Assembly (NCBI GenBank): GCA_963665095.1
Contig: OY762069.1
Span: forward strand, 1,696,001 to 1,760,000
Source of the DNA: an uncultured Desulfobacter sp.
GTDB taxonomy: Bacteria; Desulfobacterota; Desulfobacteria; Desulfobacterales; Desulfobacteraceae
Direction: 5' to 3'
Length of the DNA stretch: 64,000 bases
The notes below the pieces were generated by a model. The model ran no database searches and was not told where the DNA came from. It was given only the letters and a program-made list of their open reading frames with translations. Each line of letters opens with the position of its first letter. Position 1 is the stretch's first letter. Of this stretch, positions 6,522-12,469 are shown piece by piece. Made by a program: the position numbers and the translations under genes.

Positions 6522-6800
6522 TTGAATCAAAGGATTAGAATGCGATATCACATGACAGGATTGTCGGAGCAGGACACCAGTAATTATATTATGTCACGAC
6601 TTAAATGGGCCGGCTGTTCAATTCCTATATTTAAAGAGGATGCTTTAGCGGCCATCCGGGAATACTTATACGATTTTCCAAGGCTGATCGGGAATATCTG
6701 CGAAGAGGCCCTGACCTATGCCATGTTCTGTGAGCGGAAAACAGTGGATGCGGACATGATACTAAAAATTAAGATGACAGACGATATGACTACAAATCAA
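6522..6800 (+). pseudogene. C-terminal fragment of an ExeA-like AAA ATPase (transposon helper type)
   Basis: NQRIRMRYHMTGLSEQDTSNYI..RLKWAG...IF..DAL......PRLIGNICEEAL resembles the ExeA/AAA_22 lid region; no Walker A/B present. Confidence 0.65.
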
Positions 6801-6837
6801 AATTATTGGCTCAACCGAAAACAGCATAAAATTCAAG

Positions 6838-7035
6838 TCAACACCTGTGGTAACGGTCAATGGGACGTTCGTCTATGCCGGTATGCAGTTTATGGTGATA
6901 ATCGTCATGCAGCCACAGGTCAAGGGCTGCATTGAGTTCTTCCAGTGTCAGTTTTTCGGTAAGGGATGACAAAAACCGGTCCCGGACCGTACGAAAGACC
7001 CTCTCAATTTTCCCTCGGGAAGGTGAATCATAGGT
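6838..7035 (-). pseudogene. Fragment of a DDE (IS481/Mu-like integrase core) transposase
   Basis: YDSPSRGKIERVFRTVRDRFL...LEELNAALDLWLHDDYHHKLHTGIDERPIDRY is the GKIERxFRT / YxxxxH segment of rve-type transposases; truncated on both sides. Confidence 0.8.
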
Positions 7036-7411
7036 TTTTCGCCGGCGTCTCACTTACCACTGAGGTTGGTGCCTTTTCAGCAAACTTTAAACCCTTATAT
7101 AGGATAAATCCAACACATTTCTTAAAAGCGCTCAAACTGAGCTGATAGAAATAAATGTCGCCTTTTCCGGGGGGGTCACCAGAGGCGGGAGTATAATATA
7201 TTAAATTTACTGGTGGCGTTTCCGGGCTGACACAATATATGGTGGCCGGGGATTTTTTGAAAAAGTGTTCAATCATACCGGTACATTACAAAATGATTGA
7301 TGGCGTGAATTTGTAAGAGAATTTCATTCAATCTCACACAGAGTCACGACTCAATCATTTTGAGGTAATAGTTTCGCTTTTCCTCTGAATTTTTAATTTT
7401 TGAATTCAAAC

Positions 7412-7509
7412 AGTGAAGCTCCTCATAAACAAAAATTACCATCCATAAATGGTGATATTCTTAAGATCAATCTGCAATAAAGCAGTTGAATGTTATAAGG
7501 AGCTTCACT
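7412..7509 (+). promoter_or_regulatory. Leader hairpin occluding the recombinase ribosome-binding site
   Basis: Perfect 12-bp inverted repeat AGTGAAGCTCCT (7412-7423) / AGGAGCTTCACT (7498-7509). The right arm contains AGGAG and abuts ATG 7510. Confidence 0.6.
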
Positions 7510-8958
7510 ATGAAAAAAAGAAACATTTTTCAAAATCAAAGTCAAGAAATCCTTACTCTTTTTGAAATGGCAAAAGACAGGTCCAAGGTCATGTGCATCC
7601 CTATGGATTATGCCAAAAAAGATCATGTGGCCATGTTTTGCAATGGGAATGGAAAAATCCTTCGAAAGCCCTTTTCCATAAAAAACACACCTGAAGGAGT
7701 GGAATATTTAATTGATCAAGTCACAAAATCTTGTCACCATCATGGGATTGATATTAAAAACACTCTTTTCGGCGGGGAGGATTGCGGGACATATGCGAAT
7801 AATTTCATTGAAGCTCTACGTTCGGAAAATTGGCTGGTGGCAGGGGTAAATGCACTTGATGCCAAAAGACACCGGGAAAATATTCAAGCGAGCACGGACC
7901 GGTTAGATCTATTGGGTATCAGTAAAATGCTTCTTAACTGTAGTGGGAATTGTTCTCCGGCTCAATCCGGAATTTATTGGAATTTGAGAACGCTTTGTCG
8001 AGAAAGACAGAAATTGGTGGTCACGAAAAGCGGTGTGAAAAACAGGGTTCACACCATTGTAGATCAGATTTTCCCGGGCTTTTTAAATGAAGCCAAAAGT
8101 GGAATTCCTCCATTTTCACCGGCATCATTAATATTGATGGAAGACCGATTCAGTGTGCATCAGATCCGGCGCCGAAGGCCAGCCGCATTAGTGAAAAACC
8201 TTGCTAAACAAGGTTTACCGAATCCAGAGATCCGTGCAGAAAAACTTCAACGTTATGCCTCCCAGGTCCTCAGACCCCAAAAAGATCATATTGTTACATT
8301 GCAGATGTCATTAAAACAGCAAGTCAGATTAATTCTATGCCTCCAAGAAAGCACTGACCAATTAGAACGAGATATCGCGGCACATTCAGCGCAGACCCCA
8401 GGCGCATTCTTAACCACCATTCGAGGAATAGGTTTAATTTTAGCTGCCGGTGTAAGTGCTGAAATTGGAGATCCCGATAAGCAGAAATCTTTGACCAATC
8501 TGGTGTCTTATGCCGGCATAATTCCGCAAATAAAACAGACCGGAGGGGAACAAGGGAAAACTCAAGTGATTAGAGTCGGTAAGCGGTGTAATCGTATTTT
8601 AAAAAATTATGTCGTCCAGTCCGGCTTGCATATGGGGATTCATGGCCCCGACGAATTAATTGCCGACTATAAACGAAGAGAAGCCCGGGATCAGCATGCT
8701 GATTTCGGCATGGCAAGAAGATTTCTGAGAATGGCAATGTGTTTGATGCGGACCCACCAAGCTTATTTGCCAAAGCGCTTAAGAAGCCAACAGTGCCCGA
8801 TGGAAGAACGAGGCCGTTATTACCAAGAGGCTTGGCCGTTACTCATGGATAAATGGAGAAGGGTCAAGAAGTTAGATATTGCCTTCGATAAAAAAATGCC
8901 CTTGGGGCAATGGCGCAACATGATACAGGAGCTTTATGACATACAATTAAGGTTGTAG
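7510..8958 (+). CDS. IS110-family DEDD transposase/recombinase, long variant
   Basis: RuvC-like DEDD residues (PMDYAK, GGEDCG, STDRLD), coiled-coil segment, Tnp domain TIRGIG...AEIGD...SYAGIIP..KQTGG. AGGAG precedes ATG 7510. Confidence 0.92.
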   Translation: MKKRNIFQNQSQEILTLFEMAKDRSKVMCIPMDYAKKDHVAMFCNGNGKILRKPFSIKNTPEGVEYLIDQVTKSCHHHGIDIKNTLFGGEDCGTYANNFIEALRSENWLVAGVNALDAKRHRENIQASTDRLDLLGISKMLLNCSGNCSPAQSGIYWNLRTLCRERQKLVVTKSGVKNRVHTIVDQIFPGFLNEAKSGIPPFSPASLILMEDRFSVHQIRRRRPAALVKNLAKQGLPNPEIRAEKLQRYASQVLRPQKDHIVTLQMSLKQQVRLILCLQESTDQLERDIAAHSAQTPGAFLTTIRGIGLILAAGVSAEIGDPDKQKSLTNLVSYAGIIPQIKQTGGEQGKTQVIRVGKRCNRILKNYVVQSGLHMGIHGPDELIADYKRREARDQHADFGMARRFLRMAMCLMRTHQAYLPKRLRSQQCPMEERGRYYQEAWPLLMDKWRRVKKLDIAFDKKMPLGQWRNMIQELYDIQLRL

Positions 8959-9009
8959 ATAAAACATAAGCTTGATTTGTTGTCTCATATCAAAATTTTA
9001 ACGATTTTT

Positions 9010-9186
9010 GCGGACGGGATGGCTTCGTTGATACTGTCGCATTGGCTCAGACTAACGAGTCTCATTGACGGCTACTAATAGAATGTCCACCATGTCCGCT
9101 CCAATACTTTCATTATGGCTCAAAGGTGCTCTGATCCTCGGAAATTATGCCGAGAGATCTTGTTATACCAGTATGCCAAATTTTGG
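9010..9186 (+). ncRNA. Predicted bridge RNA/seekRNA (target-binding loop ~9010-9099, donor-binding loop ~9101-9186)
   Basis: Two stem/internal-loop/hairpin units of parallel design. GGTGCTCT (9125-9132) is identical to 9345-9352, and ACTAATAG (9074-9081) is the reverse complement of 9351-9358. Confidence 0.75.
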
Positions 9187-9499
9187 ATTTGTAGGGCATG
9201 GTCTTCCACCAGTAACGCAAATTATTTAAAATCGATGACTTTGGGATACAATTGATCTTATTGTGTATCATTAAAAAACCGATCATATCGGACAGGGATG
9301 GTACGTCTCAAAAAAATATTGAAAATATTCCTTGTTTTCTCTCTGGTGCTCTATTAGTGCTTGGTCAACTATGTGACAAATTGAAGAAAAAAATTGCAAG
9401 CATTTTCAGATGATGTTAATGACTTTATCATTATTAGTTTGAATATTAATACAATTCTGACTATGCTTACTTTTTACACCTACCAGAGACAACCATAAT

Positions 9500-12469
9500 A
9501 TGAGCAGCTTGATCGACAACACTTTCAGAAATGAATTGAACCGTATGGAAATGCTTCGCCCTGAAGAGGAGTTGTCGAGTCTTTATTTTGTCGCTGACAA
9601 AAATGAAGTACAACCGTGTATACGTATTGCTCTTGAACAGGCTGAGCGTTATAAGGCTGACGCAGTTTTTTTCCGAATTTTTCCTATTGGTGACAACCGT
9701 TCCCCGCTTCCCCAGATTTATATTTATTATGACACTGCGCTGTCCCTTGACGATACCTATTATGCCGGGATACACCGCCGCCTATGGAATGCGGGCATTC
9801 CCCCATTAGTATTCATCCTGACTGCCGGGCAGGTGAAAATCCTCAATTGTCGGCAGAAACCTGAAATTGACAAAGACTCCAAAAAACCTGTCTTCACTCC
9901 ATTCCGTACACTTGAAAGGGTAATAGCCGTCGAACGGGCATTTGCCGCTCGGGAAATTGCAGCCGGAACACTCTGGGAAAATACAAAATTTAAGAGTGAC
10001 TTCGTACTTGAAAAAACCGCTTACTTCGAGTTACTTACTCACCTCAAGTCGTTCCGACAGAAACTGCTTTTATTAAAAATTTTGTCAGAGCCTACTGTCA
10101 ACCGAATCTTGGTTATGGCGATTTTAGTCAAATATTTGAATGATCGCCAGGATTCTTCAGGAAACCGTGTTTTCGCGGAAGGGTTCCTGCGTCGATTTTC
10201 CAGTGCGAATAATGATGATATTGAATCTCTCTTCATAGAGAAGGGGAGTTGTATTAAGCTGTTTGATCATTTAAGCAGGCATTTTAATGGTGGCATTTTC
10301 GAATTGACCGATAGTGAAAAAAAGGAATTGTATCAGGCTGATCTCTCACCGATTGCGGTCTTCCTGAAAGGAGATCAGGACCCGACAGGTCAGATGCTCT
10401 TTTGGCCGCTCTATTCGTTTGAAGACCTTCCGGTTGAGTTAATCAGCAATATTTACGAGGAGTTTCTGGCAAAAAAAGAGGATGGTAACGGTGTGGTTTA
10501 CACGCCACCAATGATGGTTGATTTTCTTATAGATCGTTGCTTGCCTCTTGAAGCAAGTACGCTTTCCCGAAAAATTCTCGATCCTGCATGTGGTTCCGGT
10601 GTTTTCCTGGTTGGCGCTTTCAAACGCTTGATACAATGCTGGCGTGTGGCCAACGACTGGAAACAGCCGACTTATCGTGATTTACAGGCAATTCTTAAGA
10701 ATAGCATTTTCGGAATCGACAAAGCGCCCGAAGCAGTTCTGGTAACGGCTTTCAGCCTCTGCGTTGCGCTTTGCGATGAATTGGAGCCGTTGATTATCTG
10801 GAATGAACTTAAATTCGACAACCTGCAAAATAGTAATCTCCAGGATAGAGATTTTTTTGAAATTGTTGAATCTGGGGAATTCAATAATCACTTCGAGTTA
10901 ATTATCGGCAACCCTCCGTTTGACAGCAAACTGACGACTAATGCCGCCAAGCGGATTGAGAAAACTGAAGCCAAAGTTCGTCCCAAACTCCCAGATACTC
11001 AACTTGCGCTACTTTTTCTTGAGCAATCCTTCCGACTTGCCCGTAAGGATGCAACGGTCTGCCTGATTCAACCGGCGGGGCCGCTGCTGTACAACGGTAA
11101 CGCACTGCCTTTCCGCGGCCACCTGTTTGAGCAATTCGCCATTAATCAGGTATTTGATTTCACTCCGCTGGAAGGGGTTCTTTTCAAAGCAAAGGTTGCG
11201 GCAGCGGCGATAGTTGGCTTAAATAAGCCCCCATCGACAGAGAAAATTCAGCATATAACAGTACGTAGAACCAAGGCGCTCAAGGAAAAACTTCTGTTTG
11301 AGTTGGACCCCTATGATTTCCACTGGATACCTCGTGAATCCGTAAAGCAGAAACAATATGTATGGAAAACCAATCTGCTTGGCGGCGGAAGGCTTCACCG
11401 AATGATGGATCGCCTAATTACCGGCGTTAAAACATTGGGCGAGTATCTGGCAGAGAAAAAGGATAATAAAGGCTGGCAATTTGGTGAAGGTTTTAGTGTC
11501 GGATGCGGAAGTTATTTAAATGAGTTGTCCAACGCAAAAGAATTAGCAAAATTATCGCCCAAAAAACTAACGTACCAGTTTAAATTAAAAAGACCCCCTA
11601 AGCTTGCTTCTTGGATAACAGGGAAAAACAATGTTCCGCCAAAAGCTTTGACAAAAGATGGCATTGATTGGAATTCAGTAAAGAGTATCAATAAACTTTT
11701 TTTTGAAGAACCACGCAGGACGACTCAACTCATTTTCTCCGCTCCACATGTGTTAATCAGAGAAAAAGTTGATGGATTGGCTATCCCCGCTGTTTACACG
11801 GACAAAAAATTGGTGTTCACTAATCAAGTTATTGGGGTGTATGCACCTGAGAATGAACAGAATCATTTGAAAGTTCTTGCTGAGCGCTTAAACGACTCCA
11901 AACTCTTTGGGATTCTATCCATATTGCTTAGCGGGAGAATACTGGTCGGGCGATCAAACTCTTTGTATGCAAGAGATATCATGGCATTACCTTATCCTGA
12001 TGATCTGCAGGATATAGATCTGAATTTCTGGGAGCAAGCCCTTGTCGATGACATTGATAACTATCTCGTCGATTTTCGGCGCAGCGGTGAAAAGGCCGCA
12101 ATTTTATCCGAAACAGATGAATCCGACCTGCACAATTTCGGCAAAATGTACTGTAGTATTCTTAACCCTGTGTACAAACAATTCCGCCCCTTAGACCCAA
12201 TTCAAATTGGTTCCTTTATCTGTTACCCTTTTTGCTACGGAGATACGCCCACGATTGAAATGCCTGAAGAAAACAAGGTCGTTCCATTTCTTGATAGTTT
12301 GTTACACTGCCAACAAGGCAGCCGCCTGTTTGTAAACCGCATACTTCGCATGTACGAACAAAACGTAATCTTTATGATCAAACCGAATCAGAAGAGGTAC
12401 TGGCTACGTTCTATAGCTCTTCGCGACGCTGACGAGACATTAGTTGATCTCTTGGAACAAGGATATTGA
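9500..12469 (+). CDS. N6-adenine DNA methyltransferase, Type IIG/Eco57I-like architecture with C-terminal target recognition region
   Basis: VELISNIYEEFL, GVVYTP, motif I ILDPACGSGVF, motif IV IIGNPPF. Confidence 0.9.
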   Translation: MSSLIDNTFRNELNRMEMLRPEEELSSLYFVADKNEVQPCIRIALEQAERYKADAVFFRIFPIGDNRSPLPQIYIYYDTALSLDDTYYAGIHRRLWNAGIPPLVFILTAGQVKILNCRQKPEIDKDSKKPVFTPFRTLERVIAVERAFAAREIAAGTLWENTKFKSDFVLEKTAYFELLTHLKSFRQKLLLLKILSEPTVNRILVMAILVKYLNDRQDSSGNRVFAEGFLRRFSSANNDDIESLFIEKGSCIKLFDHLSRHFNGGIFELTDSEKKELYQADLSPIAVFLKGDQDPTGQMLFWPLYSFEDLPVELISNIYEEFLAKKEDGNGVVYTPPMMVDFLIDRCLPLEASTLSRKILDPACGSGVFLVGAFKRLIQCWRVANDWKQPTYRDLQAILKNSIFGIDKAPEAVLVTAFSLCVALCDELEPLIIWNELKFDNLQNSNLQDRDFFEIVESGEFNNHFELIIGNPPFDSKLTTNAAKRIEKTEAKVRPKLPDTQLALLFLEQSFRLARKDATVCLIQPAGPLLYNGNALPFRGHLFEQFAINQVFDFTPLEGVLFKAKVAAAAIVGLNKPPSTEKIQHITVRRTKALKEKLLFELDPYDFHWIPRESVKQKQYVWKTNLLGGGRLHRMMDRLITGVKTLGEYLAEKKDNKGWQFGEGFSVGCGSYLNELSNAKELAKLSPKKLTYQFKLKRPPKLASWITGKNNVPPKALTKDGIDWNSVKSINKLFFEEPRRTTQLIFSAPHVLIREKVDGLAIPAVYTDKKLVFTNQVIGVYAPENEQNHLKVLAERLNDSKLFGILSILLSGRILVGRSNSLYARDIMALPYPDDLQDIDLNFWEQALVDDIDNYLVDFRRSGEKAAILSETDESDLHNFGKMYCSILNPVYKQFRPLDPIQIGSFICYPFCYGDTPTIEMPEENKVVPFLDSLLHCQQGSRLFVNRILRMYEQNVIFMIKPNQKRYWLRSIALRDADETLVDLLEQGY

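Follow-up and report, generated by a model that had tools for sequence, protein, structure and literature searches.

Threonine at the catalytic-serine position of a long, mobile clade of IS110-family recombinases from an uncultured Desulfobacter sp. and its relatives

In textbooks, the recombinases and topoisomerases that link themselves covalently to DNA use either tyrosine or serine. A gene of an uncultured Desulfobacter sp. raises the question of whether a threonine can play that part. We analysed a stretch of 64,000 nucleotides (NCBI GenBank assembly GCA_963665095.1, contig OY762069.1, positions 1,696,001 to 1,760,000 of the forward strand), hereafter the window, from whose first letter all coordinates below are counted. 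It contains an insertion sequence with a recombinase gene (Table 1), the product of which belongs to the IS110 family and has a threonine, Thr344, at the position of the catalytic serine. A first-pass annotation had left two readings of this residue: a clade that uses a threonine nucleophile and carries extra protein parts, or a single-base inactivation of this one copy. We consider it probable that the element is an intact, recently mobile IS110-family insertion sequence with an RNA-guided recombinase, in which the hydroxyl of Thr344 is the likely working nucleophile and would act via a 5'-phosphothreonyl-DNA intermediate. A wider claim, held a little less firmly but still thought likely, is that a large, currently mobile clade exchanges strands via 5'-phosphothreonyl-DNA. 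This would be the first threonine recombinase, with Thr and Ser interchangeable in nature, and the trait would be coupled to extra protein modules and to an unusually long bridge RNA encoded 3' of the gene.

Thr344 is shared by most relatives of the window protein. A set of 121 proteins, made up of the query and the 120 relatives that match it best (62-93% identity, almost all of 482 aa), has Thr at this site in 108 and Ser in 13, with Q343, G345 and G346 invariant throughout. Related loci were also fetched from genome and metagenome contigs; 152 of the 160 cover the site, with Thr in 129 and Ser in 23 (92 and 14, respectively, where the match runs unbroken over residues 1-482). Each of the four Thr codons occurs (ACC 110, ACT 10, ACA 7, ACG 2), and the Ser codons are of both types, TCN in 20 loci (TCC 15, TCT 4, TCA 1) and AGY in 3 (AGC 2, AGT 1). 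Distant full-length relatives (at least 430 aa, 24-48% identity; 45 of the 150 listed) divide into 22 with Thr and 23 with Ser, mostly in the context Q(T/S)GG, the five most distant having Ser without the GG. A FastTree phylogeny of 164 full-length proteins (128 T, 36 S), computed after removal of the trait column, implies at least 18 changes between Thr and Ser, and one Ser-bearing protein is 91.7% identical to a Thr-bearing one. In a 128-row alignment, Thr or Ser occupies 118 of the 123 rows that cover the site, and the finger loop holds no further conserved Ser, Thr, Tyr or Cys. S333 is invariant in close members, but is Ala or Gly in several distant Thr-bearing relatives. The window protein itself matches every column that is invariant among 27 clade members. 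On these comparisons threonine is the usual state of a large mobile clade, and it alternates with serine alone.

As a control, PF02371 was run against the genome that holds the window and against 120 genomes from its phylum, and the open reading frames (ORFs) were read at the 38 loci returned, for the 120 genomes the best ones. Ser was found in 31 of 31 readable ORFs outside the clade, the sole Thr being that of the window's own element, and 7 ORFs did not cover the site. With Ser in every readable control ORF, Thr in this sample, which is small and from one phylum, appears to mark the long clade rather than IS110-family proteins at large. The clade was not found in the plasmid collection searched, where the best matches are about 25% identical.

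The residues of the active site were placed by alignment with IS621 and ISCro4. A single-sequence search against the PDB sequences was too weak to use, a profile of 27 sequences already matched IS621, and a profile of 128 sequences matched both IS621 (8wt6_A, E-value = 9e-22) and ISCro4 (E-value = 5e-20). In the latter alignment D33, E90, D130 and D133 stand opposite the DEDD residues of both proteins, and ...vkqTGG stands opposite ...yeSGS, pairing T344 with S241 and G345 with G242 (IS621 residue numbers after PMC11208158; the 8wt6_A chain is offset by 2 residues). In the parts of PMC11208158 drawn on here, the IS621 tetrad is D11, E60, D102 and D105, and the catalytic S241 is followed by G242, which bonds to D102; S241 is covalently joined to the 5' phosphate as 5'-phosphoserine, and its mutation abolishes recombination.

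The predicted structure points the same way. A first AlphaFold2 (AF2) model, made from 27 close sequences, had a predicted local distance difference test score (pLDDT) below 50 in the Tnp domain and no conclusions were drawn from it, its Foldseek list being already headed by ISCro4 and IS621. A model made from 128 sequences, including the relatives at 24-48% identity, reached a mean pLDDT of 94.4 and a predicted template-modelling (TM) score (pTM) of 0.89. With this model Foldseek retrieved the IS621 chains with an E-value of 5.6e-11 and target-normalised TM scores of 0.76-0.78, and ISCro4 with a TM score of 0.75. VIA-align superposed model residues 26-423 on ISCro4 (Z = 23.6, root mean square deviation (rmsd) 2.7 Å, 304 of 318 residues) and residues 26-425 on IS621 (Z = 23.4, rmsd 2.8 Å, 306 of 319 residues). 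Judged by the model, the window protein has the fold of IS621 and ISCro4, and Thr344-Gly-Gly forms the tip of a beta-hairpin with strands 339-343 and 351-356. We infer the structural equivalence of Thr344 and S241 from the profile alignment and from the hairpin-tip position in the predicted monomer, because the structural alignments yielded aligned ranges and not residue pairs.

An AAGGAG ribosome-binding site (7497-7502) lies 7 nt 5' of the ATG, and the homologues, likewise of 482 aa, share the start Met. Pfam identifies DEDD_Tnp_IS110 (PF01548) at residues 32-189 (E-value = 3e-20, 73 bits, cut-off 29) and Transposase_20 (PF02371) at residues 300-360 (E-value = 8e-11, 42.6 bits, cut-off 21.3). 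The NCBIfam model of IS110 family RNA-guided transposases (NF033542) matches residues 32-417 with 122.2 bits, under its cut-off of 140, and TIGR_Tas_endo matches weakly (E-value = 6e-7, 29.6 bits against a cut-off of 100). The DEDD tetrad is invariant in the 27 close sequences and 92-99% conserved in the 128-sequence alignment. By domains and fold the protein is an IS110 homologue, and it is a variant with respect to the defining residue because Thr344-Gly345 fills the aligned S241 site.

Three parts are added to the common core, all of them conserved in the clade and confidently folded in the model. Invariant residues (27 sequences) are S11, Q12, E13, F18 and K26 in the N-terminal region and W442, K448, W449, W468 and R469 in the C-terminal extension. 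The coiled coil is enlarged by an insertion of about 75-90 aa: query residues 183-298 are opposite just 42 residues of IS621 (chain 157-197) in a hidden Markov model (HMM) alignment, and the 306 residues of the structural alignment are spread over a 400-residue range of the model, as with such an insertion. The C-terminal extension measures about 57 aa by structural alignment and about 63-65 aa by the HMM alignments, which end at 418-419. A Pfam scan of the whole protein found no extra domain in the extensions, and an ESM Atlas search with the C-terminal extension (415-482) gave small unnamed clusters and no lead. Much of this had been read correctly in the first-pass annotation. Its intact DEDD residues and its ACC codon for Thr at the catalytic-serine position are upheld by the profile pairings, its statement that a serine makes the covalent DNA intermediate in IS621 agrees with the passages of PMC11208158 cited above, and the superposition on IS621 that it had proposed came out as described. 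Its N-terminal extension of about 25 aa fits a structural alignment that begins only at model residue 26, and its Trp-rich C-terminal extension of about 65 aa is close to the HMM value and somewhat above the structural one. It had overlooked the coiled-coil insertion.

The Thr-bearing genes are maintained and their elements have moved. Compared with two Thr-bearing relatives whose proteins are 88-89% identical to its own, the window gene has ratios of nonsynonymous to synonymous substitution rates (dN/dS) of 0.057 and 0.055, values by which these genes are under strong purifying selection. The window element recurs in a metagenome contig (L086) with 99.4-99.5% identity over about 2.09 kb, between unrelated flanks. 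Other Thr-bearing blocks of 2.07-2.11 kb are found with more than 99% identity and differing flanks (L016/L095, L009/L142 and L114/L115/L117), and a further locus, L093, is at a third site with the guide segments and target motif of L016/L095. One genome, G001, has three clade copies that are at least 99.7% identical at three loci (L048/L166, L050/L167+L171 and L051/L168+L172). In one of them the gene is intact and the left end is split about 50 nt in by a 1.68-kb insertion; in the two others, at different loci, the gene is split at codon 364 by the same 1.5-kb insertion, which would mean either that the composite moved as one or that the nested element has a site specificity of its own. All eight clade copies of G001 that are readable at the site have Thr, and a protein search of this genome found no Ser-bearing clade member. 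Ser-bearing elements are multi-copy as well (L076/L077, 100% over 2,088 bp). The window element is also present in contigs of public runs from four differently labelled organisms, with 0-6 differences per piece and none listed at 8539-8541; the best holders may be the window's own source and hence not independent.

The clade is found mostly in metagenome-assembled genomes of sulfate reducers. Its longer contigs are mostly of Desulfobacterales type. The short ones, of about 2-4 kb (L009, L010, L015, L033, L040, L043, L049, L056, L073, L074 and L083), come from bins labelled Bacteroidales, Omnitrophota, Aenigmatarchaeota, Promethearchaeota, Anaerolineales, Planctomycetota, Gammaproteobacteria, Thermoguttaceae and Alphaproteobacteria. 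For these odd bins, a mis-binned repeat is as likely as a true spread.

The right end of the element has blocks of higher nucleotide conservation than the gene itself (block-wise comparison of 89 sequences; 100 sequences for the left-end profile). RNAalifold found 41 pairs in 47 sequences, 19 of them with compensatory changes, and two variable guide segments flank one helix in the manner of an internal loop. In 53 distinct pairs, loop segment 1 (after GGATGGCT) shares 248 of 466 positions with the left flank, where 2,000 permutations gave a mean of 147 (standard deviation 10, maximum 187); the observed match is lowered because some left junctions were mis-anchored by the search pattern. Loop segment 2 (after GACGGCT) agrees, as the reverse complement, with the right junction at 219 of 330 positions in 55 distinct pairs (permutations: mean 97, standard deviation 8.8, maximum 125). 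The window's own guides match at 6 of 9 positions on the left and at 8 of 8 on the right. We predict that the two variable loops are the left- and right-target guides. Further conserved segments of the RNA (GGTGCTCTG, TACCAG and CACCAG) by eye resemble or complement the right-end and left-end sequences of the element, as a donor-binding loop might; these ends are nearly invariant in the clade and so offer no covariation. An Rfam scan of 6900-9600 with E-values up to 1 returned no bridge-RNA family, and just a chance match to a microRNA family (E-value = 0.65). RNA-library contigs of relatives (90-99% alike) cover 8995-9303 and 8791-9168. Two RNA libraries of one study (X15 and X17) match from 8995 to 9247 or 9303 at about 95%, and both diverge 5' of 8995 into the same unrelated sequence, which suggests a relative where the RNA module follows another 3' gene end.

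When the right end, the core and the left end are joined, a TTGnnn-17 nt-TAnnnT arrangement appears in 52 of 57 distinct end pairs. In the window its parts are the TTGTTT of the right end and a -10-like hexamer TACATT at 7282-7287 in the left end. A promoter of this junction type is reported for ISEc11 in the portion of PMC11187229 that we draw on. In the runs, all of them contigs, no joint of the right end to the left end was seen, a negative that carries no weight with such data. The left end also has a hairpin at 7289-7300/7351-7362. A second hairpin, 7412-7428/7493-7509 (17 nt, 94% complementary), is conserved across about 100 relatives and takes in the ribosome-binding site and the bases as far as the start codon, so that recombinase translation may be held back by it.

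The borders of the element are defined by two kinds of alignment. Homology with close and distant relatives begins at about 7270-7280 and stops at about 9352-9361, and with relatives of 70-82% nucleotide identity it ends at the borders of the element. A contig of run X6 joins 7279 straight to 9353 (depth 6, shorter side 41 letters), skipping 2,073 bases with the ends GG..CT, and a contig of run X8 has a similar joint with ACC between 7277 and 9353. The empty site according to the X6 joint reads ...TCAATCATACC/ATTAGTGC.... As this left flank is part of a repeat about 100-115 nt long, the empty-site contig may be a paralogous unoccupied repeat rather than the same locus. Across loci the left core is CT in 49 and TT in 23 of 85, and the right core CT in 42 and TT in 11 of 55; most loci have the same CT, or in one subfamily TT, at both junctions, as expected from a duplicated core. 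No terminal or sub-terminal inverted repeats between the element ends were found among the 25 longest of 134 inverted pairs. The clade consensus ends share a 5-bp GTACC match at most, and the window's own ends are without it.

The repeat that holds the target is found in the window at 7182-7279 and 9353-~9366, and elsewhere in the same genome in L002 (1482-1595), L003 and L004, with pieces 100%, 84% and 89% identical. In contigs from related organisms its word depth is very high, 300-1,100 versus 7-135 for the neighbouring sequence. It looks like a dispersed intergenic repeat used as landing site by the window subfamily. The uninterrupted repeat copy in L002 (...CATACC/CTAAGTGCTTGG) was considered as the exact target and rejected, being two substitutions off the reconstructed target and just a paralogous, imperfect site.

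Several points weigh against a working threonine recombinase. We know of no recombinase for which a phosphothreonyl-DNA link has been shown, and no Ser-to-Thr test in IS621 was found in the literature. The equivalence of T344 and S241 comes from a profile alignment and a predicted monomer, and the true site of catalysis is built jointly by subunits assembled on RNA and DNA. The ORF of the nearest copy, L086 (437-1882), with 5 nucleotide differences in the gene, has a nonsense codon (R213*); all three near-identical G001 copies are broken by other insertions (one in the left end, two in the gene); and the window element is single-copy in its own 6.9-Mb genome. In the window subfamily (window, L086 and L089) the left core is CC and the right core CT. 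The left guide of the window RNA is followed by CT, not CC; it is our conjecture that a CC-core target met a CT-core donor. The support for transcription of the RNA, contigs of relatives from RNA libraries that may hold DNA and do not give strand or ends, is a weak hint. Finally, loci of both collections were pooled, so that the counts include repeats of one sequence (e.g. L044 = L130).

Four other explanations were weighed. That a private mutation inactivated the window copy has hardly any probability left: ACC is indeed one step from both TCC and AGC in the genetic code, but this second reading of the first-pass annotation is refuted because Thr occupies the site in 129 of the 152 related loci and in 108 of the 121 close proteins. 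All four Thr codons, the dN/dS of about 0.055 and the multi-copy spread tell against it too, and none of the columns invariant in 27 clade members is altered in the window protein. The annotation had itself proposed to align homologues for conservation of QTGG and for recent multi-copy spread. The motif is conserved, the close homologues are not all of the Ser type, and near-identical Thr-bearing copies occupy differing sites in L086, G001 and elsewhere. Of its first reading, the Thr clade with added protein parts is borne out by the comparative data, and the Thr nucleophile itself is what we infer. More serious, if still unlikely, is the idea that Thr cripples catalysis and that the Thr-bearing elements are decaying or are moved in trans by active Ser relatives. 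Thr is often a poorer substitute in serine-nucleophile enzymes, the copies in the window, L086 and G001 are single, stopped or interrupted as just described, and movement in trans could account for the two G001 copies that stand at different loci with one and the same nested insertion. Such a view must explain, however, why the supposedly defective residue is the majority state, in four codons and in genes with a dN/dS of about 0.055, why the eight readable copies of G001 all have Thr with no Ser-bearing clade member found beside them, and why the window's own genome has no other clade member at all. It is difficult to see how a rare active minority could maintain a dead majority over hundreds of lineages that each have guides of their own.

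The residue at 344 might also shape the loop or bind phosphate, while another residue, or water at the DEDD site, cleaves the DNA; we rate this slightly lower again than a crippled enzyme. Free exchange of Thr and Ser would fit a hydrogen-bonding role too, and the extra domains could change the mechanism. On the other hand, residue 344 shares its position, the Gly after it and its hairpin with the S241 loop of IS621, and the cited parts of PMC11208158 describe S241 as DNA-linked and indispensable for recombination. The loop holds no other conserved Ser, Thr, Tyr or Cys (the annotation had named a different Ser in the active site as a finding that would speak against it), S333 is lost in distant Thr-bearing relatives, and hydroxyl residues alone are common at 344 (118 of 123). 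Very improbable, in our view, is a domesticated or repurposed RNA-guided factor akin to TIGR-Tas or the Nop5 relatives. TIGR-TasR and the Nop5 family are structural relatives, the TIGR_Tas_endo model matches weakly, and the IS110 model stays below its cut-off (122 versus 140); yet the gene is part of a discrete 2,073-bp unit that recurs at many unrelated places between flanks matched by its guides, and for which an empty site is seen; copies are multiple within genomes, and the full DEDD tetrad and the hydroxyl finger are retained.

Nucleophilic attack by Thr344 is our preferred reading. Since a site restricted to Thr and Ser lies at the tip of the catalytic finger, in genes selected solely via the movement of the element, either hydroxyl as nucleophile is the simplest account. 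The chemistry is feasible. NPP/autotaxin enzymes are Thr-nucleophile phosphodiesterases of the alkaline-phosphatase superfamily, in which alkaline phosphatase has Ser, and some linear replicons have Thr-linked terminal proteins; these examples show that the hydroxyl of a Thr is capable of attacking a phosphodiester and of bearing a nucleotidyl or DNA group. As far as its sequence tells, the window element is a working, or very recently working, insertion sequence of the bridge-RNA type. By analogy with IS621, it would excise as a circle, and the joined right and left ends would build the TTGnnn-17 nt-TAnnnT promoter facing the gene. The recombinase would then bind the RNA, which would pair with a target consisting of left flank, 2-nt core and right flank. 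Thr344 of one subunit, opposite the DEDD/Mg site of another, would attack the phosphodiester, carry the 5' end, and so cut and rejoin the strands beside the core. The N- and C-terminal helices and the enlarged coiled coil are clade-specific additions, which might hold the much longer RNA.

Compared with IS621 (PDB 8WT6-8WT9; Hiraizumi et al. 2024, PMC11208158; Durrant et al. 2024, PMC11208160), the window element shares the overall fold, the DEDD residues, a hydroxyl-Gly pair at the Tnp hairpin tip, a structured RNA encoded by the element, with loops that match the flanks of the target on both sides of a 2-nt core (here mostly CT), and insertion into a repeated sequence. It differs in having Thr for Ser241, at 15-19% identity only, and in its length (482 versus 326 aa), due to the N-terminal helix, the coiled-coil insertion of about 75-90 aa and the C-terminal extension of about 57-63 aa. 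Its RNA lies downstream of the gene in the 394-nt right end, whereas that of IS621 is upstream; its conserved RNA core exceeds 200 nt, and its NCBIfam IS110 score is below the cut-off. ISCro4 (PDB 9T56) is the best structural match of the model, with the same residue pairings in the profile, but has Ser at the aligned site (...yeSGS) and is without the three additions. The IS110 group sensu stricto, IS621 for example, has its guide RNA in a long left end and a short right end, the reverse of the window element. In this respect the window element resembles the IS1111 group, for which the parts of Siddiquee et al. (2024, PMC11187229) and Durrant et al. (2024, PMC11208160) drawn on here describe a guide RNA and a long non-coding region 3' of the gene; it also has a right end longer than the left (394 versus 230 nt) and junction promoter potential as in ISEc11. 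Sub-terminal inverted repeats of 7-17 bp (usually 11-13 bp), as in that group, were not found in it, and Thr replaces the Ser of the SG motif. Its 482 aa are above the 300-460 aa quoted for the IS110 family in the same portion of PMC11208160.

More remote likenesses are seen with TIGR-TasR (PDB 9MTY, Z = 18.0), which has RuvC-like, coiled-coil and helical Nop-type domains, and with Nop5, Nop56/58 and Prp31 (Z about 11-12), which have the coiled-coil and helical Nop-type domains without the RuvC-like one. The part of PMC11213020 drawn on here describes Nop5 and Prp31 as being without the beta-sheet finger that bears the catalytic serine, whereas the window protein has it. Unlike the window gene, members of the TIGR-TasR/Nop5 group are not encoded by mobile elements with matched flanks. 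The Thr-nucleophile phosphodiesterases and Thr-linked terminal proteins are alike in that related enzymes may use Ser or Thr, but their folds and reactions are unrelated and none is a recombinase or transposase.

The features of the element are given in Table 1. Upstream of it lies mobile-element debris: a 71-aa fragment on the minus strand (6838-7053) that resembles an integrase core domain (rve_3, E-value = 2.6e-5, below cut-off), overlapped by a plus-strand ORF of 137 aa (6522-6935) with no Pfam match. The next downstream gene (9500-12469, plus strand, 989 aa) has Eco57I-type and N6_Mtase/MmeI methylase domains, and its product is probably a type IIG/IIL restriction-modification enzyme.

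Table 1. Coordinates of the insertion sequence and its parts in the window
Feature	Position	Strand	Remarks
Insertion sequence	7280..9352	+	2,073 bp including right core copy CT (9351-9352)
Left target flank TCAATCATA and left core CC (7278-7279)	7269..7279	+	Inside the ~100-115-nt repeat
Left end, non-coding	7280..7509	+	230 nt; TACATT, hairpins, AAGGAG
Recombinase gene	7510..8958	+	482 aa; DEDD domain (RuvC-like), coiled coil interrupted by additional helices, Tnp domain, helical extension at the C-terminus
N-terminal extension	7510..7584	+	Residues 1-25, helix 12-21, pLDDT >90; without counterpart in IS621 or ISCro4
DEDD codons	7606..7908	+	D33 7606-7608, E90 7777-7779, D130 7897-7899, D133 7906-7908
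Coiled-coil insertion	8056..8403	+	Residues 183-298; short helices 194-252 between two long coiled-coil helices
Thr344 codon ACC	8539..8541	+	Within SYAGIIPQIKQ-T-GG; aligned with IS621 Ser241; hairpin tip
C-terminal extension	8785..8955	+	Residues 426-482; helices 431-451, 455-458, 464-476; Trp-rich; pLDDT 92-98
Right end, non-coding	8959..9352	+	394 nt; guide RNA gene; -35-like TTGTTT 9332-9337
Predicted bridge/seekRNA-type non-coding RNA core	9005..9220	+	RNAalifold covariation; ends approximate
Variable loop segment 1 TCGTTGATA, predicted left-target guide	9025..9033	+	Same sense as left flank
Variable loop segment 2 ACTAATAG, predicted right-target guide	9074..9081	+	Reverse complement of CTATTAGT (9351-9358)
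Right target flank ATTAGTGC	9353..9360	+	Junction alignments, empty-site contig

The literature searched on IS110/IS1111 bridge recombinases describes no Thr at the catalytic-serine site, a statement that covers main texts (supplements, which are outside this scope, might show it). The word "threonine" has no occurrence in the main texts of PMC11187229, PMC11213020 and PMC11208160, and the portion of PMC11208160 drawn on here speaks of a "highly conserved serine". Within those main texts, the family and its mechanism are known, and the nucleophile residue, the protein additions and a 3' RNA without long sub-terminal repeats are unreported. Should threonine prove to be the nucleophile, enzymes that rearrange DNA would have a wider chemistry than is known so far. 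The clade would then offer a natural Ser/Thr swap, in pairs up to 92% identical, that could be used to study how the rate and reversibility of bridge recombination are tuned. A structurally distinct branch, with three modules, a longer 3' RNA and readable target guides, would join the programmable recombinases. Mining and annotation rules that demand the SG serine or the NCBIfam cut-off would miss this threonine branch.

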